From: a phage
Length of the DNA: 64,000 nucleotides
Direction: 5' to 3' (one strand)
Sequence record: PZ347775.1
The notes beneath the pieces were generated by a model. It saw only the letters and a list, made by a program, of their open reading frames with translations. It was not told the origin of the DNA and made no database searches. Each line of letters opens with the position of its first letter. Positions within the stretch are counted from its first letter, which is position 1. The position numbers and the translations under genes are program-made. Shown here in pieces: positions 45,040 through 56,156 of the stretch.

Positions 45040-45510
45040 TTAATCATGTTTCCACACCCCATCGGTATTTGACCAAAGTCGCTGATTATCTGAACCTCGC
45101 CACAGCTTTTTGGTCGGAAGATTTTTCTCATACTTCCCATCAATAATAACATCAACATATTTAAGCATTTCTAGTTGTTTAATATCTTCAAACTTATATC
45201 CTGTCCACAACCAAATGCTTTTATTCGGATAAAGATTTTTTACTGTTTGAACAATGCAATGAACAACATCTCGGTTATCTGGATAGAGAGGGTCTCCTCC
45301 AGTTATAGTTAATCCTTCTATATAATCATTATTCAAACATTTAATTAATTGTTCTAGTGTTTCACCAGTGAATGGAACGCCATTTCTAGCATTCCATGTT
45401 GATTTATTATAACACCCTTCACATTTATGCAAACAACCTGTAACGAAAAGAACGACCCTGCATCCAGGGCCATTCACAAAATCACAGGGATAAAATCTAT
45501 CGTAATTCAT
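45040..45510 (-). CDS. nrdG: NrdG anaerobic ribonucleotide reductase activase (radical SAM)
   Basis: 156-aa ORF with CxxxCxxC cluster motif. Confidence 0.9.
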   Translation of the reverse strand: MNYDRFYPCDFVNGPGCRVVLFVTGCLHKCEGCYNKSTWNARNGVPFTGETLEQLIKCLNNDYIEGLTITGGDPLYPDNRDVVHCIVQTVKNLYPNKSIWLWTGYKFEDIKQLEMLKYVDVIIDGKYEKNLPTKKLWRGSDNQRLWSNTDGVWKHD

Positions 45511-47324
45511 TGGTGTTTAACCCTATGCATGATTTCTTTATTTTTGCCGAGATTAAATCCGCGTTCATTCGGATTTCCCAAATAACCACAAGTTCTTCTT
45601 ATTGTGTTCATCTTTTTAGGATCAGTTTCTCCACAAATAGAACAAACAAATCCGTTTTCAGTAGGAGTCATTTCATGGGTACTTCCACACGTAAAACATT
45701 TATCTACTGGCATGTTAACACCAAAATAATCTAAATGTTGTGCAGCATAATCCCATACAGCCTCAAGACCTTTTAGGTTATTTTTCATATCAGGAAGTTC
45801 AACATAAGAAATGTGACCGCCTGTCGCAATGAAATGATATGGGGCTTCGCGAGAAATCTTTTCAAACGGAGTAATATTTTCTTCTACTGAAACGTGGAAA
45901 CTATTAGTGTACCAGCCTTTATCAGTAACATCTTTTACACTTCCATATTTCTCAGTATCAAGTTTACAGAAGCGATAGCACAGGTTTTCAGCAGGAGTAG
46001 AATACAAGCTAAAAGCAAAACCAGTTCTTTCAGTCCACTGCTTAAGACGAGCATTCATTTTAGTTAAAATTTCCTGTCCAATATCACGCCCGACAAGAAT
46101 ATTCAATTCGTGAATACCAATGTATCCTAAGGACACTGAACTTCTACCGTTTTTAAATAACTCAATTATATCGTCATCAGGTTTAAGACGAACCCCGAAT
46201 GCACCTTCTTGGTAAAGAATAGGAGCAACAGTAGCTTTAACTCCTTTTAAGGAACTAATTCTACACATCAATGCTTCAAAACATAAATCCATTCTCTCAT
46301 TGAACAATTCGGCAAATTTCTGTTCATTGAACTGTGTTCCAATATAAGAATCTAGTGCAATGCGAGGAAGATTCAGTGTTACAACACCAAGATTATTACG
46401 TCCATCAAGAATTTCATTACCAGTCGAATCTTTCCATACACCCAAGAAACTACGACAACCCATTGGAGAAACAGGAATAGATGAACCGGTGATAGCTTTA
46501 TTGTTCTTAGCCGAAATGATGTCAGGATACATTCTTTTACTTGCACACTCTAGAGCAAGCTGCTTAATATCATAGTTCGGATCGTCTTTATAAAGATTAA
46601 CACCTTCTTCAACGAACATAACAAGTTTAGGGAAAATAGGAGTTATCCCATCACGACCAAGGCCTTTAATACGATTTTTCAGAATTGCTTTCTGAATCAT
46701 TCGTTCAGTCCAGTCAGTTCCCGTACCAAATGTAATTGTTACAAAAGGCGTTTGTCCGTTTGAACTAAAGAGAGTATTTACTTCATATTCATAAGCTTGG
46801 AATGCATCGTATACGTCTTTTTCTGTTTTAGATTGGGCATAATTCAACGCATCAGCGATTTGCCATTTTTCTGCATCCTCAATATGTTTTGCATAGGTGC
46901 GTTTAACATAAGGAGAAAGGACTTTATCTACATTCGCAAAAGTCGTTCCACCATATTGATGGGAAGCAACCTGTGCAGTAATTTGTGCCATAATTGCAGT
47001 AGCAACACCGATTGATTTAGGAGTTTCAATCTGTGCATTACCGAGCTTAAATCCGTTCTCAAGCATTCCTTTTAAATCTACTAAACAGCAATTAGTAAAT
47101 GGAAGAGCAGGGGAATAATCAATATCATGGAAATGAATAATTCCGCTTTCATGCGCTTTCATAATAAAAGACGGGACCATATTTTTGGCAATGTGTTTAG
47201 ACACAATACCAGCCATAAGGTCCCGTTGAGTTGGAAAAACACGAGAATCTTTATTAGCATTCTCGTTTAAAAGGTCTTTATTAGTTTTATGAATCAATCC
47301 TTCAATTTCTTTTTCAATTGTCAT
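45507..47324 (-). CDS. nrdD: NrdD anaerobic ribonucleoside-triphosphate reductase (uninterrupted)
   Basis: 605-aa continuous ORF; C-terminal glycyl-radical region RRTCGYLG; no intron. Confidence 0.95.
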   Translation of the reverse strand: MTIEKEIEGLIHKTNKDLLNENANKDSRVFPTQRDLMAGIVSKHIAKNMVPSFIMKAHESGIIHFHDIDYSPALPFTNCCLVDLKGMLENGFKLGNAQIETPKSIGVATAIMAQITAQVASHQYGGTTFANVDKVLSPYVKRTYAKHIEDAEKWQIADALNYAQSKTEKDVYDAFQAYEYEVNTLFSSNGQTPFVTITFGTGTDWTERMIQKAILKNRIKGLGRDGITPIFPKLVMFVEEGVNLYKDDPNYDIKQLALECASKRMYPDIISAKNNKAITGSSIPVSPMGCRSFLGVWKDSTGNEILDGRNNLGVVTLNLPRIALDSYIGTQFNEQKFAELFNERMDLCFEALMCRISSLKGVKATVAPILYQEGAFGVRLKPDDDIIELFKNGRSSVSLGYIGIHELNILVGRDIGQEILTKMNARLKQWTERTGFAFSLYSTPAENLCYRFCKLDTEKYGSVKDVTDKGWYTNSFHVSVEENITPFEKISREAPYHFIATGGHISYVELPDMKNNLKGLEAVWDYAAQHLDYFGVNMPVDKCFTCGSTHEMTPTENGFVCSICGETDPKKMNTIRRTCGYLGNPNERGFNLGKNKEIMHRVKHQ

Positions 47325-48413: not shown

Positions 48414-48734
48414 TTATAGCGTAATCCATTCTCGTATTGTCTGAGTTACTACACGTTCATGGGGCTCGACTAGTTCAACAGTTGGAACTGCATAATACCA
48501 GTCAGAATGGTAAGAACCTGAGCGAGATTCATTTACGGAAACATGTACATTATGTTTTGGACTAAAATAAACGCACTGCCGATATTGGCATTTGCCATCT
48601 TGTACCCAATCTTCTATTTCGACAGGTTTAAGATAATCCGAAAAATCGAAATCATAATTTTCTGAAAATGCATCATGGTCTTCGATGATTTCACTCAGAA
48701 CTGCATCAACATCTAATTTATTTTCAATAGTCAT
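48414..48734 (-). CDS. hypothetical protein (106 aa)
   Basis: ORF. Confidence 0.5.
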   Translation of the reverse strand: MTIENKLDVDAVLSEIIEDHDAFSENYDFDFSDYLKPVEIEDWVQDGKCQYRQCVYFSPKHNVHVSVNESRSGSYHSDWYYAVPTVELVEPHERVVTQTIREWITL

Positions 48735-49394: not shown

Positions 49395-49637
49395 TTATTC
49401 CTTAATTCCTAGTACTTGTTTAAAAGTCTCGTCGTAATCAAGACTTTGACCTGTTTGTTCTTTATGTTTGTATATAATATCACTTACTTCTGATAGCATA
49501 TTTTTATATGAACGAGTTAAAGCAGATTTAAGCACGCTGTATCTATCAGGAAATTTACCATGTTCATTATAATACGCTATTGCTAATTCACGGACTGCCT
49601 TTTCAGCAATCTCCATATATTCTTTACGCTTTGTCAT
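49395..49637 (-). CDS. hypothetical protein (80 aa, nrdC.1 position)
   Basis: ATG MTKRKEY immediately after upstream stop (TAAAATG); track ORF extended. Confidence 0.5.
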
Positions 49638-49638
49638 T

Positions 49639-50028
49639 TTAATCCAAAATATTATTAGGCATTGGTTGAACACTCGCAAGTTCTTTAAAGAACTCAGTAG
49701 AGTCAGGTAATTTAACCATTTCCGGAGCATGCTTGCTAAATTTGTGTTTACAATGACGGCATTTATATTCAAGTTCCGGTTTACGCCAGTTAATCAATTG
49801 AACCTGTTCAGTACCGCATTCAGGACAATTAGGAACGTTTTTAGAAGCCCTTTCGCGACGTTCAACCATAGCCATAATAGCATCCCAGGCTGGAGGTTTA
49901 AAATCTAAATCGTCACAACCATGAATCTTTCCACGCATTTCTAAATCGTCTTCTTCACCAGCCATAATAATTTTAATTAGACTGGAATTACTTGAAGCTG
50001 CAATATCTTCTAATAGACGCTTTTTCAT
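49639..50028 (-). CDS. zinc-ribbon protein (129 aa)
   Basis: CPECGTE ... CRHCKH four-cysteine motif. Confidence 0.55.
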
Positions 50029-50954
50029 TTCAGTACCTCAATAGCATTACGTAAACCATTTGCTTTTGCATTAAGAGCTTTTAACAATTTAGTGTGTTCG
50101 GCAATTTGGGCTTCAACTTCAATCAAACGAGCATTGAGATATTCGCGTTCTTCGCTCAAGCTATCAACCTTTTCTACTTTAGGTTCTTTTACAACTGGCT
50201 TATATGTATTAGGGTTCTTCAGTTTAATTAGAATACGTGAACTGTATAACATTGAACCATTATTTTCGATTTCGTCATACATTTCTACTACGTCCATGAT
50301 TTTTAACATCATGCGGAGTTTATAAGATAACGAACGAATAGTTTTGTTGTGCTTATTAATTTCTCTAGCTGTCATGGTGCCGAGATTACGTGAGTAATAA
50401 TAAGGAACCTGGATATTAATTAATACTGATGAACCACCTGGCTTGTGTGTTACTTCATCAGCAATAACCCAGTCCTTAACATGAACTGTATTTGTACGGT
50501 CATCGCCCGCGGTAAATAGTTTACGAGCATGCTTAAAAAGCATATTCACTTGGTCATTGAAATGACAAGCAAATTTATCAGCAAATTTAGTTTCAGGAAT
50601 GGTAGATAACCAATCAGCCAAATGGGTCTTTTTAACATCGTTAACAATAGTAAATTCAACCAAATCAGTTATAGATGTCTCAGATTTAATAAAGCTCGGC
50701 TTCATAAAGTTTTTAATGTTATCGCGAGCTACAGTAGAAGATAACATACGAGAACGTTTAAACCATTCAAGCAAATTGCCTAACGAATAAGAATAAGCGT
50801 TTTGAGTATCTTTACAGATATGATTTTCCTGGCCAACATATTGAAGGAAATCACGAAGAATATTATTAATTACTGCTCTGTGTCCGATCTGATAATTACG
50901 GTGTTTAGTAATAAGACTGTCAAAATAATCAATATAATGTTTACGAGTTTTCAT
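50025..50954 (-). CDS. paralog family member 1 (309 aa) with C-terminal coiled coil
   Basis: Shares MTARE/YMDVV blocks and C-terminal heptad region with next three genes. Confidence 0.6.
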   Translation of the reverse strand: MKTRKHYIDYFDSLITKHRNYQIGHRAVINNILRDFLQYVGQENHICKDTQNAYSYSLGNLLEWFKRSRMLSSTVARDNIKNFMKPSFIKSETSITDLVEFTIVNDVKKTHLADWLSTIPETKFADKFACHFNDQVNMLFKHARKLFTAGDDRTNTVHVKDWVIADEVTHKPGGSSVLINIQVPYYYSRNLGTMTAREINKHNKTIRSLSYKLRMMLKIMDVVEMYDEIENNGSMLYSSRILIKLKNPNTYKPVVKEPKVEKVDSLSEEREYLNARLIEVEAQIAEHTKLLKALNAKANGLRNAIEVLK

Positions 50955-51006
50955 GTTCTTCTCACTTGGTTAATGATTTATACTCCGAGCCATCCTTGGC
51001 TTTAAA

Positions 51007-52008
51007 TTACTTAATTAACTGTAAAGCTTGTTCAAGACGATTCAGGCGATTAACAGATTCTTCCCAAATACTTTTAGCCTGCTCATATTCTTTCTGCGCT
51101 TTATTAGAAATTTCTAGAACTTCTTTATAAGCTTTTTCTAGTGCAATAACTTCTGGACGAATTTCTACCGGTTCAGGCGAATCGTCAAGATTATCCATTA
51201 GTTCCTCAAGGGTAGTTTCTTCTTTAGGAGTATTCACAATTTCTTCACATTTTTGTTGGTAAATTTCTTTATCAGTCGGTAAATAAGCACATTTCACTTC
51301 ACGAAGACTAACTACAATTTTATATCCTTCCCAACCGCATATATTCTTAAAAGGATACGTATGAATATTTTCTACTGTTTCCATACAAAGTAATGCGGTT
51401 TCTAATTGACGAGTTATAGTGCTAGCAATTGAGAAAAATTTATTAATGTTCTTTTGGTTAGTTTCTGGTGTAAAAAATCCATAATTCACAAAAATAGATA
51501 CTTTATTTTTATCAAGTTCATATTCTTTTACGATAATCATATCAGAAGCCAAAGGATGAATTTGACGATAATCGCCATAACATAATTTAGAAGCTGATTT
51601 TAGAATTTGCTTTTTGAAAAGTCTGAAATTACTAATCCAACGACGAGTAAAAATATTCTCAGGGTCTTCTTTATTATTAAGATGATAAGAATTAACATCA
51701 CCGAACCAATTATATCCTACTACATCTTTGGTTCGTTTAATTTCTTTCCCAAAATTACCAAGAATATCCCGATTAACCAAATATGAAAGAAGACGAGACT
51801 CTTTAAAGGTTTTCTTGATAACATCTTTATCTACACGACTAGAAATTTTACGAATTTCATGAATAAATTTAGTAGAAGAAACAATACCTGCATCAACACT
51901 ATTGAGCCATTGATTGATAATAGAAATAACGCTATTTTGACCAAACATCGGTATAGCTTTATCATCAATAACACTATTGAATGATTTGATATATTCGTTA
52001 CGAGTCAT
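51007..52008 (-). CDS. paralog family member 2 (333 aa) with C-terminal coiled coil
   Basis: ATG MTRNEY after GAGGAG SD; RRW...FKKQILKSASKL block shared with member 3. Confidence 0.6.
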   Translation of the reverse strand: MTRNEYIKSFNSVIDDKAIPMFGQNSVISIINQWLNSVDAGIVSSTKFIHEIRKISSRVDKDVIKKTFKESRLLSYLVNRDILGNFGKEIKRTKDVVGYNWFGDVNSYHLNNKEDPENIFTRRWISNFRLFKKQILKSASKLCYGDYRQIHPLASDMIIVKEYELDKNKVSIFVNYGFFTPETNQKNINKFFSIASTITRQLETALLCMETVENIHTYPFKNICGWEGYKIVVSLREVKCAYLPTDKEIYQQKCEEIVNTPKEETTLEELMDNLDDSPEPVEIRPEVIALEKAYKEVLEISNKAQKEYEQAKSIWEESVNRLNRLEQALQLIK

Positions 52009-52065
52009 ATTAATCTCCTCAGTAGAAAGTAAGAACATTATACCACATCCTTGTGGCAAAGTAAA

Positions 52066-53094
52066 CTAGTTCAGTGCATTTAGTGCATTGTTCAGTTTAG
52101 AACGTTGCTTCGTAAGATTTTTGACTTTTTCTTGAGCTTTTTCTAGTATCTTTTCAGCTTCTAGCACTTCATTAGTTGCTTTAACGAGTTCATCATCTAC
52201 TGCCTTGATAGACTTCTCAATCGCATCGGCATGCCATTTTTCAACAGGTTTAAGACTCGGATTTTCAACAGGAAGAAAATTCACTTTATTGAATTTCCAT
52301 GCATCCTTATTACCTGAACTATACATCCAAAATTTAGGATCGTTTGATGAGTAATTGGATAAATTTAAATTTAAGTTATCTTGTACTTCTTGCTTTTTCT
52401 CTTGTGGGACTTCGTCCTTTCTCAAAAAATCGTATTTAAATGAAACGATCATATCAAGTTCATATGTTGTTGTGTCTAATTTAAATCGCTCAAAACGAGG
52501 TAAAATCTTAGACTGAACTGCAGCAACAACGTCCATATACTTAAATGCTTCTGTCAACTGCGATTTAAGGCATTCGCAAATTGAAAGAGAATTTTTTGTA
52601 TTAGGTTTAAAGCTAATTCGTGCAGTTCTGTTATTTTCTTTTAATGGTCTTACTTCCATCTGAAGAGTATAACCATCAAATTTCAGGTTCTTTAAGTTAA
52701 TATCAGAACCTTTTAATCGACTCGCAGTTGATAAAATTTGCTTTAATTGTCTACGGAACAGAGCAATAAATCTCCATTCAATACGATAATGATTTGGATT
52801 GAAAAATCCAGATGATAAATCGACCTTACTTTGACCAACGCCTTGAACAAATAAAGGATTTTTATAATCAATAGTTTTACAGAAATCGGTGAGTTGCTCA
52901 CGAGCAGTCATTTGTGTAATATAACCCGCTTTACTAAAATTACGCACCCATTCACTGCTATTCGTATACTTAAAGTGATGAATAACACGATTAACTTTAT
53001 CAGGGTCTAAATTATTTTCACACAAAAATGTCATAACATCACGAGTATAGCTGGCGTTACGAACCATATCTTCAATTTGAGAACGAGTTTTCAT
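52066..53094 (-). CDS. paralog family member 3 (342 aa) with C-terminal coiled coil
   Basis: RIEWRFIALFRRQLKQILSTASRL and KYMDVV blocks; C-terminal coiled coil. Confidence 0.6.
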   Translation of the reverse strand: MKTRSQIEDMVRNASYTRDVMTFLCENNLDPDKVNRVIHHFKYTNSSEWVRNFSKAGYITQMTAREQLTDFCKTIDYKNPLFVQGVGQSKVDLSSGFFNPNHYRIEWRFIALFRRQLKQILSTASRLKGSDINLKNLKFDGYTLQMEVRPLKENNRTARISFKPNTKNSLSICECLKSQLTEAFKYMDVVAAVQSKILPRFERFKLDTTTYELDMIVSFKYDFLRKDEVPQEKKQEVQDNLNLNLSNYSSNDPKFWMYSSGNKDAWKFNKVNFLPVENPSLKPVEKWHADAIEKSIKAVDDELVKATNEVLEAEKILEKAQEKVKNLTKQRSKLNNALNALN

Positions 53095-53102
53095 GGTGTT
53101 CC

Positions 53103-54014
53103 TTAAGATTTAAGTAAATCGACAATTTTAATTAACTTTTCACGCTCAGATTTAGCTTTACTACTCAGTCCAGATAGTCTGAAAATTTCATCATCATATT
53201 GTTGAATAGAAATATTCAGCTCTTCAATCTGCTTATTAAAATAATCAATTTGTTCAGAATGTTTTTCGTTACTACGAACTGGTACAGGTTTTGTAGGCAA
53301 TGTAGTTGAACTGGATTCATCCGGGCGATAAATTAAAATACAACTTGAACCAATAGGGCATTTTGCACCAGATGAATATTCTAATGTTCCAGCTTCTTTT
53401 AAAACTTCAAAAGCTAAACAGAGATGATGTCCCATATTAACATAATCTGTAGAGTGAGCTCTGATGTAATAATCATCTCCACGAATACTAAATTTAAAGC
53501 ATTTAAGGTCTTCTGTATTATTGGTCTTAAAAATCATTTGTTTATCTAGACCTTTAGCTAATCGAGCGCCCAATGCTAATAATCGTCGTTGATTTTCCCA
53601 CAAATCCGCAATCATTTGATCGAATGATAATTTCGGCATTAGTCGACCATAAAGGTCATATCCTTTATTATAATTACGAAGAATTTCACTCGCATTAATA
53701 CGAGACAACGCTCCAATTTTATTAAGGGCTTTCATAATGCGATTAGATAAACTCATTCCAGACCCATTTGTTCGCTGTAAATGTTTTTCTAATCCAAAGC
53801 CAATATCAACTTTAAACTTATCTAAAATTTCGGCATGAACATCTCTGTCAATAACATTCAAATCCAAAGTTGGGTTAAATCTATGAAAAAATTTATCTGG
53901 CTCTCCACGACGAAATACAGTCCATTCATTCATCATTTTTTTATTAACTAAAGATTTAATTACTGCATTGACATTATTAATTGCTACTGACATATTTTCC
54001 TCACTCAATTTCAA
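53103..54014 (-). CDS. paralog family member 4 (303 aa) with C-terminal coiled coil
   Basis: Divergent member; ADLWENQRRLLALGARLAKGL block and C-terminal coiled coil. Confidence 0.55.
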   Translation of the reverse strand: MKLSEENMSVAINNVNAVIKSLVNKKMMNEWTVFRRGEPDKFFHRFNPTLDLNVIDRDVHAEILDKFKVDIGFGLEKHLQRTNGSGMSLSNRIMKALNKIGALSRINASEILRNYNKGYDLYGRLMPKLSFDQMIADLWENQRRLLALGARLAKGLDKQMIFKTNNTEDLKCFKFSIRGDDYYIRAHSTDYVNMGHHLCLAFEVLKEAGTLEYSSGAKCPIGSSCILIYRPDESSSTTLPTKPVPVRSNEKHSEQIDYFNKQIEELNISIQQYDDEIFRLSGLSSKAKSEREKLIKIVDLLKS

Positions 54015-54408: not shown

Positions 54409-54463
54409 AATAATCTCAATTAAAATGGCTTAGAACCATTATACCATCCTTGGTATAAAGCGG

Positions 54464-55436: not shown

Positions 55437-56156
55437 TTAGGATTCTTCTAAATGTCTTTTCTGAAAAGTTGATACCATACTACGATACGGTTCATTTGGA
55501 TACCCGTGTTTTATAGCTTCCTTTGTAAATTTTCTCCATCCATATTTAGTTTCTTTCCAAAGCTCGAATAATTCATCTTCATATTGCCATATAGTTAAAT
55601 GAGAACGCTTTGCAGCTTTAATTCCATTAATATGCTTTTCTTTTACTACAGGATTACTTAGTTTCTTTTTAATAATATTACTAACTTTTCTAACAAAAAC
55701 TGGGTCCTTATATCGTTGCGAAGTTTTTATTGAAGTGTTTAATTTAGCTTCCGGTGTGGATGTGACCTCTTTCATCTTTTTCTTCATATGCTGTATATGA
55801 TTAGGATTTTTCCATAAATTTATAGAATGCTTTTTGCATTTTATCCTAGTTTCATCTGCAACCTTTCCTCCTTCACCTCCGTATGACAGGTTAACACAGT
55901 TTTTTCCATATTTCAATTTACCTGCCATGATATATAATATTTCAGCTTGTACCATTTTATCATAATTATCAAAAACTTCTAAAACCGTTTTTGTTAATAT
56001 GTGGTCATTTGACACTTTTACACGTTCTATATAATTTCCACTACCAACATACGAATCATTGATGTTATTAGTTATATGTCGACCATAATAGTATTTCTTA
56101 ATACCTGTCTTTAAATTTAATATTTCAGTTTTATAGATAGTAAAATATTTTTTCAT
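55437..56156 (-). CDS. free-standing GIY-YIG (Seg-like) homing endonuclease
   Basis: N-terminal TIYKTEILNLKTGIKKYYYGRH ... SYVGSG; NUMOD-like repeats; C-terminal ELW...GYPN...YR module shared with the HNH endonuclease. Confidence 0.8.
   Translation of the reverse strand: MKKYFTIYKTEILNLKTGIKKYYYGRHITNNINDSYVGSGNYIERVKVSNDHILTKTVLEVFDNYDKMVQAEILYIMAGKLKYGKNCVNLSYGGEGGKVADETRIKCKKHSINLWKNPNHIQHMKKKMKEVTSTPEAKLNTSIKTSQRYKDPVFVRKVSNIIKKKLSNPVVKEKHINGIKAAKRSHLTIWQYEDELFELWKETKYGWRKFTKEAIKHGYPNEPYRSMVSTFQKRHLEES

Follow-up and report, generated by a model that had tools for sequence, protein, structure and literature searches.

nrdC.3 to nrdC.6 of a T4-like phage as a diverged paralog family with a candidate role in countering bacterial defence

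T4-like phages are the main phage model for Enterobacteria and major therapeutic candidates against them, and the role of most of their dispensable early genes is not known. In the phage sequence PZ347775.1, of which we analysed a stretch of 64,000 nucleotides (the window), four neighbouring genes on the minus strand, nrdC.3, nrdC.4, nrdC.5, and nrdC.6, raise the questions of whether they share one origin and what they do for the phage. An earlier note, made from the sequence alone, had described them as a duplicated and rapidly diversifying family of a kind often seen for host-interaction or anti-defence proteins. Judged from sequence profiles, nrdC.3-nrdC.6 descend by tandem duplication, with much divergence, from a single ancestral gene of about 320-345 amino acids (aa), and we hold the identity and paralogy of the four genes with high confidence.

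The source genome is a Tequatrovirus (T4-like). A 4.6-kb stretch with the array matched 741 phage records and is 97-98% identical in DNA to vB_EcoM_SA20RB and ime09. The ime09 annotation places nrdC.3, nrdC.4, nrdC.5, and nrdC.6 on the minus strand, with nrdC.2 on one side and nrdC.7 on the other, and the gene order is the same here, in ime09, and in T4. The comparison with the T4 nrdC.3-nrdC.6 region that had been suggested proved to be one with those very genes. As open reading frames (ORFs) in the window they are nrdC.3 (paralog A, 50025..50954, 309 aa), nrdC.4 (paralog B, 51007..52008, 333 aa), nrdC.5 (paralog C, the ortholog of the T4 anti-Dsr1 gene, 52066..53094, 342 aa), and nrdC.6 (paralog D, 53103..53993, 296 aa). 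Their protein identities to T4 are 61, 96, 96.2 (full length), and 97%, respectively; nrdC.3 belongs to another allele class than that of T4 and is 96% identical to the ime09 protein. The four consecutive genes thus lie where the earlier note had put them, but nrdC.6 is shorter than its 303 aa from TTG 54014. The most likely start is ATG 53993, which has a GAGG Shine-Dalgarno sequence and gives the 296 aa annotated in relatives. The T4 RefSeq nrdC.6 (L025, 9067-9894) is annotated with 275 aa and lacks the last helix segment; the gene encodes 295-296 aa in other Tequatroviruses and in the T4 annotation of the HIDEN-SEQ supplement (891 nt). The shorter T4 version is either a strain difference or a reference frameshift.

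Direct comparisons joined two of the four proteins. In BLASTP and phmmer among all four, nrdC.3 and nrdC.4 were the sole significant pair (BLASTP 26% identity over 227 aa, expectation value (E) 4e-7). nrdC.4 and nrdC.5 share a 24-residue block with 50% identity, and nrdC.6 had no match to the other three. The proposed all-against-all alignment therefore supports the nrdC.3/nrdC.4 pair, but the remaining pairs became significant only when profiles were bridged. Leave-one-family-out HMMER searches on forced mixed alignments recovered nrdC.3 and nrdC.4 only and were judged too insensitive, so HHalign with intermediates was used instead. An exhaustive search of 1.84 billion proteins with the nrdC.5 family profile gave 13 representative matches and, at library-wide significance, none that connected nrdC.5 to the other families.

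Family profiles were built from database homologues and compared by HHalign. The nrdC.3 and nrdC.4 families matched with 98% probability (E 7e-14); unbridged, the other family pairs reached P values of 5e-4 to 0.06 only, and the alignments were colinear through the core in all pairs except nrdC.3/nrdC.6, which aligned in the C-terminal region only. The bridges were single-copy genes at the equivalent locus in other Straboviridae genera. Through them, nrdC.5 was linked to the Winklervirus singleton (95%), the Winklervirus to the Jiaodavirus singleton (93%), and the Karamvirus KMB19 group to CkP1 (97%). With merged groups, the nrdC.5 group matched nrdC.3 plus nrdC.4 with 95.7% (P 9.5e-9), the Karamvirus group matched nrdC.5 with 91%, and the Winklervirus/Jiaodavirus group matched the Karamvirus group with 95%. 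Alignments between groups were colinear over 130-310 columns. In 33 control comparisons, made with unrelated families of the same genomes, P was at least 0.019, and the lowest P among ten reversed-sequence controls was 0.0048.

The relationship persists outside the coiled coil for three of the four genes. After removal of the last 65 residues (core-only comparison), nrdC.3 and nrdC.4 still matched with 98%, the Karamvirus singletons matched nrdC.5 with 92.6% (P 4.6e-7) and the Winklervirus/Jiaodavirus singletons with 93.5%, the latter matched nrdC.3 plus nrdC.4 with 90.8%, and the nrdC.5 group matched nrdC.3 plus nrdC.4 with 85.5%. Overall, the links of nrdC.3, nrdC.4, and nrdC.5 in this region range over 85-98%, with P from 2e-14 to 6e-6. 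The membership of nrdC.6 is the weakest link of the superfamily. Full-length HHalign joined it to the Karamvirus singleton (90%, P 1.8e-6), HMMER matched it to the same single-copy gene (E 4.6e-8) over an alignment that extends from the basic helix as far as the first helix of the C-terminal region, and Foldseek matched its model to singleton models; the core-only link to Karamvirus has a P of just about 1e-3. With bridged profiles, all four genes join the single-copy syntenic gene of other genera in one superfamily, and the claim of duplication stands.

Convergence offers another explanation, in which common descent would hold for nrdC.3 and nrdC.4, and nrdC.5, nrdC.6, or both would resemble them only through a coiled coil and composition. 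The failure of pairwise and leave-one-out HMMER tests for nrdC.5 and nrdC.6 would be expected from it, and the three separate families in Pfam and PHROGs, the reversed coiled-coil controls that reach P 0.005, and the core-only value of nrdC.6 point the same way. Convergence does not account well for the strong core-only profile links of nrdC.5 (P 5e-7 to 6e-6), the colinear alignments, or three motifs in the same order in every group. Lengths, genomic position, and order of secondary structure are also held in common, and the predicted nrdC.6 structure resembles the singleton models. We consider convergence very improbable.

The databases reflect the partial similarity. nrdC.3 and nrdC.4 both match phrog_1435, nrdC.5 matches Pfam PF23882 (DUF7235) over its full length with 424.7 bits (gathering threshold 30, E 3e-127), and nrdC.6 matches phrog_2257 (E 3e-152). 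Our local Pfam copy, which does not include the PF26897 and PF26899 models, recognises nrdC.5 alone. Precomputed PF26897 (Phage_T4_Y04OP) assignments are carried by nrdC.4 homologues (88-94% identical) and by the fusion protein P0056, whose C-terminal half is nrdC.3; nrdC.6 homologues (97-98% identical) carry precomputed PF26899 (Phage_T4_Y05B). Pfam (PF26897, PF23882, and PF26899) and PHROGs (1435, 2351, and 2257) thus keep nrdC.3 with nrdC.4, nrdC.5, and nrdC.6 as three separate families, all of unknown function, which are here joined with the Straboviridae single-copy genes as one superfamily. The genes, the nrdC.5 phenotype, and the grouping of nrdC.3 with nrdC.4 in a single Pfam family were known already; in the literature and databases we found no report or grouping that joins all four genes with the single-copy genes of other Straboviridae genera. 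Searches of the Protein Data Bank (PDB) by sequence, with nrdC.5 and nrdC.6 profiles, and by fold, with the nrdC.6 model, gave nothing past generic helical hairpins, and the superfamily appears to be without a solved fold relative. Sub-threshold matches in Pfam, NCBIfam, and PADLOC (Phage_int_SAM_1/XerD N-terminal domain, BrxC coiled coil, and PgrA coil) were treated as noise.

In the representative alignment the order of motifs is constant in all groups. Most superfamily members start with the leader M-x-T-R; the MKTR/MTR start reported earlier is present in three of the four genes but not in nrdC.6. The N-terminal helix motif is exemplified by RSRMLSSTVARDNIKNFMK, ESRLLSYLVNRDILGNFGK, KAGYITQMTAREQLTDFCK, and KIGALSRINASEILRNYNK. 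This motif is followed in all groups by a basic helix with A-x-[RK]-L..G.D at its end. The basic block of the earlier note is clear in the 24-residue nrdC.4/nrdC.5 match and weaker, though recognisable, in nrdC.3 and nrdC.6. The next helix, L...L..A[FL]..M[DE]-VV, corresponds to the previously noticed KYMDVV block. This block is evident in nrdC.5 and nrdC.3 (KYMDVV/KIMDVV), but it is degenerate in nrdC.4 (CMETV) and retains only the hydrophobic positions in nrdC.6. The protein then continues through a Pro-Val linker into the C-terminal helix, whose end carries L..A[IL]..L[K]. The common architecture is therefore a set of N-terminal helices with the motif, the basic helix, a small beta-hairpin/helix/beta-hairpin unit, the Pro-Val linker, and the C-terminal heptad helix. 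Superfamily-conserved columns are almost all hydrophobic, with a few Ala, Gly, Lys/Arg, and Pro, and none of the superfamily alignment columns holds a conserved enzyme-type Asp, Glu, His, Cys, or Ser. Such a pattern shows no catalytic motif, in agreement with the first description.

The C-terminal heptad helix was recovered in all four genes. The last 49 residues of every family profile showed a hydrophobic 3.5-residue periodicity stronger than in shuffled sequences for nrdC.3 (50025..50174, the last ~49 codons plus the stop; p=0.008), nrdC.4 (51007..51156; p=0.0005), nrdC.5 (52066..52215; p=0.0005), and nrdC.6 (53103..53252; p=0.014). A crude heptad scan marks residues 271-309 of nrdC.3, and the nrdC.4 segment is the strongest window of the whole protein. 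In nrdC.5, AlphaFold predicts with confidence a helix at residues 283-341, along which the 10-residue block mean of the predicted local distance difference test score (pLDDT) climbs from about 62 at the start to 88. In nrdC.6, it predicts helices at 243-272 and 278-295, separated by a conserved LSGL break. The C-terminal helix may oligomerise the proteins.

The AlphaFold model of nrdC.6 has a pLDDT of 78 and a predicted template modelling score (pTM) of 0.66. The nrdC.5 model, made from its own shallow family alignment, is poor (pLDDT 44) and was rejected for the fold search; its order of elements is as in nrdC.6. The putative shared fold consequently rests on one good model and the profiles. 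With the nrdC.6 model, Foldseek matched uncharacterised proteins of 304-346 aa from the phages PM2, IME523, Acj61, Acj9, Merlin, Mineola, and CBH8 (E 4e-7 to 8e-3), with the Karamvirus IME523 model as the best match (E 3.9e-7). Template modelling (TM) scores were about 0.42-0.47 for five of the seven and about 0.2 for Merlin (0.22/0.20) and CBH8. The CBH8 protein, at 346 aa, has the length of the syntenic singleton; genomic place was considered for this match alone.

Copy number differs among the Straboviridae genera. Karamvirus, Winklervirus, Jiaodavirus, and Lazarusvirus have one gene of 322-348 aa in the equivalent place upstream of nrdC.2/nrdC, Mosigvirus and Dhakavirus have three copies, and Tequatrovirus has four. 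The ancestral-type gene adjoins the nrdC glutaredoxin gene across Straboviridae. For the Acinetobacter (Lazarusvirus) singleton, HHalign gave no sequence link (P ~0.004), and its membership in the family is probable from the Foldseek matches to the Acj9 and Acj61 models. The Karamvirus singleton occurs in two allele classes (about 92% and 63%). A related-locus search of IMG/VR returned few loci. The gene just upstream of the single-copy member (L006, 10974-11777; L008, 11680-12453; L017, 2432-3250) is 74% identical between Winklervirus and Karamvirus and is also present in Jiaodavirus. The family members of Winklervirus and Karamvirus have no pairwise BLAST similarity, a sharp local contrast in rate with this neighbour.

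The divergence of the family agrees with the description as rapidly diversifying, but the selection statistics do not add to it. Across genera, identity is 26-56% in the family and 69-98% in nrdC.10, nrdC.8, and nrdC, and nrdC.3 has two allele classes that are about 60% identical inside one genus. The gene-wide pairwise ratio of nonsynonymous to synonymous divergence (dN/dS) within Tequatrovirus is 0.10-0.32 for nrdC.3, 0.21-0.23 for nrdC.4, 0.05-0.16 for nrdC.5, and 0.06-0.14 for nrdC.6; among the neighbours (nrdD, gp49, nrdC, nrdC.8, nrdC.9, and nrdC.10) it is 0-0.10, with one nrdC.10 pair at 0.13. Values of 0.05-0.32 indicate relaxed constraint without demonstrating positive selection, and since all are below 1, an arms race is not demonstrated by these statistics. 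On these sequence comparisons, the family diverges fast yet under purifying selection overall.

The nrdC.3 alleles differ in a variable central cassette (50100..50850), an allelic mosaic in which DNA identity to T4 and UFV09 is 54-71%. Its flanks, including the first ~18 codons of the gene, are 92-99% identical to T4/UFV09. Identity rises again only in part, to 66-75%, between about 50200 and 50101, and the last ~25 codons reach 84% (T4) to 93% (UFV09). Synonymous divergence (dS) between the allele classes is about 0.93-1.09, compared with about 0.1-0.35 for the flanking nrdC.1, nrdC.2, and nrdC.4. By tblastn, records with nrdC.3 fall into bands of 95-99% (251 records), 90-95% (107), 80-90% (4), 60-80% (258), and below 60% (34) identity. 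Among the matches listed, T4-type alleles lie at about 60-62% and straddle the two lowest bands, and the matches at 74-78% include a Mosigvirus. The Mosigvirus allele is nearer to that of the window than the T4 allele is.

Whole genes have also been lost or fused. nrdC.6 was found in 742 records, nrdC.3 in 654, nrdC.5 in 582, and nrdC.4 in 554. In phage ACG-C40 (L003, 5805-6216), a natural deletion has removed nrdC.4 together with all but 71 codons at the start of nrdC.5 and 72 codons at the end of nrdC.3, and phage Pinarejo (L029, 2439-2652) retains a frameshifted nrdC.6 remnant of the first ~20 and last ~47 codons. In Salmonella phage Manna (L030, 2215-3252), nrdC.5 is absent and one in-frame chimera of 345 aa runs from nrdC.6 (residues 1 to about 262) into nrdC.4 (residues 251-333), with the junction at a DEI/EEI microhomology. 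The 299-aa fusion P0056 combines the middle of nrdC.5 with the C-terminal half of nrdC.3 in T4-like metagenomic contigs (L027, 4001-4900; L028, 2362-3261); at these loci, found on four contigs of up to 167 kb, nrdC.4 is deleted and a 115-aa N-terminal nrdC.5 fragment lies upstream. Another protein, P0230 (173 aa), carries an unrelated N-terminal part of 117 aa, followed by an almost unchanged copy of the C-terminal coiled coil of nrdC.5, and may be either the product of a head swap or a chimera of the assembly. It was not used as evidence because it comes from a single 803-bp ENA contig and its N-terminal part had no match in 50,697 phage genomes.

What the family does is best approached through nrdC.5. 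T4 nrdC.5 counters the SIR2 NADase defence Dsr1; cloned dsr1 protected MG1655 against a T4 deletion mutant, and infection was regained when T4 nrdC.5 was supplied on a plasmid (Srikant, Guegler, and Laub, eLife 2022; PMC9391042). A 2026 preprint reports phage major capsid proteins as the signal recognised by the tetratricopeptide repeat (TPR) sensors of both Dsr1 and Avs7 (PMC12803255). From its 96% identity to the T4 protein, the nrdC.5 of the window is predicted to have the same anti-Dsr1 activity. T4 transposon mapping (HIDEN-SEQ supplement) found nrdC.3-nrdC.6 all non-essential on laboratory E. coli, and a joint deletion of T4 nrdC.1-6 is viable. Two neighbours in the window, gp49.2 (48414-48734) and nrdC.1 (49395-49637), belong to genes that inhibit OLD and Septu, respectively, and the block thus behaves as a counter-defence region. 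The suspicion of a host-interaction or anti-defence role is in this way borne out for one paralog through its published T4 ortholog, and for nrdC.3, nrdC.4, and nrdC.6 we infer it. Since one copy switches off Dsr1, the other three are good candidates against other bacterial defences.

The four proteins might instead form a hetero-oligomer through their similar C-terminal helices and act as one complex with one function, not as four independent inhibitors. The tail motif L..A[IL]..L[K] common to all four, the single co-directional gene block, and natural in-frame chimeras that retain the head-plus-coil layout are compatible with this. An obligate complex fits poorly with the many phages that have just one, two, or three of the genes and with the single-copy state of distant genera. 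In addition, plasmid-borne nrdC.5 alone restored the T4 deletion mutant on the Dsr1 host, for which the available text of the paper does not state whether the other paralogs were present in the mutant. We regard the complex as quite improbable.

A third alternative accepts the genes as true paralogs with another common role, such as nucleic-acid binding or host-process remodelling through the basic helix. The effect of nrdC.5 on Dsr1 would then be indirect, for example by altering when or in what quantity the capsid trigger appears, or by way of NAD+ metabolism. The basic helix is conserved in all members, selection is purifying overall, and the main text on the defence screens reports no phenotype for nrdC.3, nrdC.4, or nrdC.6. 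Residues 30-86 of nrdC.3 (50697-50867) also bear a faint, sub-threshold likeness to the SAM-like domain that lies at the N terminus of tyrosine recombinases and binds DNA (Pfam E 0.1; NCBIfam E 0.005), although with 16 bits against an NCBIfam cut-off of 279 such matches are far under the curated cut-offs. An indirect effect is hard to reconcile with the rescue by plasmid-borne nrdC.5 alone, specifically on the Dsr1 host. The genes are also fully dispensable on laboratory hosts, they diverge much faster than neighbours with housekeeping roles, and their copy number and alleles vary among close phages, which is typical of host-range accessories. We consider this alternative unlikely.

The explanation that we favour is of a dispensable T4-like paralog family whose scaffold binds host immune proteins, and we hold it as a whole with moderate confidence. 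In this explanation, nrdC.3-nrdC.6 are dispensable accessory genes that lie on one strand. A T4 early-promoter-like element, GTTTAC N14 gtggTATAAT (52037..52066, minus strand), was found by reading the sequence and by consensus scan between nrdC.5 and nrdC.4; together with the GAGGAG Shine-Dalgarno sequence at 52015-52020 it fixes the start of nrdC.4 at ATG 52008. SA20RB carries this element with the annotation of a T4 early promoter; here it is a consensus match only. A middle-promoter-like element, GCTT N13 TATAAT (54438..54461, minus strand), which lies upstream of nrdC.7 and beyond the coordinates of the earlier note (50025-54014), is likewise a consensus match only, at a site annotated as a T4 middle promoter in SA20RB. 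It is likely the start of an nrdC.7-nrdC.6-nrdC.5 transcript.

We hypothesize that the products serve as a non-enzymatic binding scaffold, in which the variable head would attach to a host immune protein and block it, and the C-terminal helix would form an oligomer. nrdC.5 would target Dsr1; in the simplest case, the protein may occupy the sensor or keep the NADase inactive before the late capsid protein appears. Duplication, exchange of the nrdC.3 cassette, and deletions or fusions between paralogs could retarget the scaffold to different defences, and each copy may extend the host range. We give an even chance to this binding and anti-defence mechanism for the whole family. A further version, in which a modular, recombining immune-evasion scaffold occupies one Straboviridae-wide locus, is more tentative. 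It would combine a constant frame (N-terminal leader, basic helix, and C-terminal oligomerising helix) with a swappable head, and each paralog or allele would block a different host sensor.

Several observations weigh against the favoured explanation. Functional data are limited to nrdC.5 and describe a phenotype rather than a mechanism, and the main text on the HIDEN-SEQ screens, which covered several clinical isolates and defence systems, contains no phenotype for the other three genes. Gene-wide positive selection (dN/dS > 1) was not found, with a maximum of 0.32. The nrdC.6 link drops when the C-terminal region is removed, the C-terminal region of nrdC.6 is predicted as two helices and not as one long coil, and the nrdC.5 model is poor.

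Comparison with known systems places the family among several precedents. The closest is T4 NrdC.5 itself, of which the nrdC.5 of the window is the ortholog (96.2% over the full length, between nrdC.6 and nrdC.4, DUF7235), with no material difference. The T4 paper describes neither the mechanism nor the kinship with nrdC.3, nrdC.4, and nrdC.6 (PMC9391042). A functional analogue is DSAD1 (DSR anti-defence 1) of SPbeta-like phages, which is reported to bind and neutralise the defence-associated sirtuin NADase DSR2 (PMC10981675; PMC11087589). DSAD1 differs in its target, DSR2 instead of Dsr1, and in its host and phage lineage. It was not among the PDB chains matched by the nrdC.5 and nrdC.6 profiles or the nrdC.6 model; its presence among the searched chains is presumed, as cryo-electron microscopy structures of DSR2-DSAD1 are published and should be included. 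gp49.2 and nrdC.1 share with the family the dispensable nrdD-to-nrdC.11 block and its accessory host-range character but are small, unrelated proteins. The alt, alt.-1, and alt.-2 genes (PMC1524935) are likewise accessory genes of T4-like phages that were duplicated side by side and then diverged, but Alt and the proteins related to it are ADP-ribosyltransferases and have catalytic motifs, unlike the nrdC.3-nrdC.6 family.

The surroundings of the array show further differences from related phages. nrdC.2 (49639-50028, minus strand) encodes a 129-aa protein that bears a zinc-ribbon signature (Pfam Zn_ribbon_8, E 1.5e-5, under the family cut-off). Its DNA identity to T4 is about 41-44% over 49600-49800, which makes it another mosaic patch adjoining the array. 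nrdD (45507-47324, minus strand) is a single uninterrupted ORF of 605 aa, and in T4 the gene is split by the I-TevII-encoding intron. Between nrdC.9 and nrdC.10, a 239-aa ORF (55437-56156, minus strand) matches the homing-endonuclease family phrog_314 (E 1.8e-30) and has no Pfam match. It looks like a mobile-endonuclease insertion, because ime09 has no gene at this spot.

Linking nrdC.3, nrdC.4, nrdC.6, and the Straboviridae single-copy gene to the counter-defence gene nrdC.5 gives a defined family and a concrete question, namely which defence each copy or allele acts on. The natural nrdC.3 cassette and the in-frame paralog chimeras are ready-made specificity swaps. Whether a phage has nrdC.5 would predict its sensitivity to Dsr1; Salmonella phage Manna and ACG-C40, for example, have lost the gene, and Manna is predicted to be sensitive. 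This is a useful and testable extension rather than a new kind of system. If the modular scaffold is true, nrdC.3, nrdC.4, nrdC.6, and both nrdC.3 allele classes would inhibit defences not yet assigned, and the composition of the array would predict the host range of T4-like phages.

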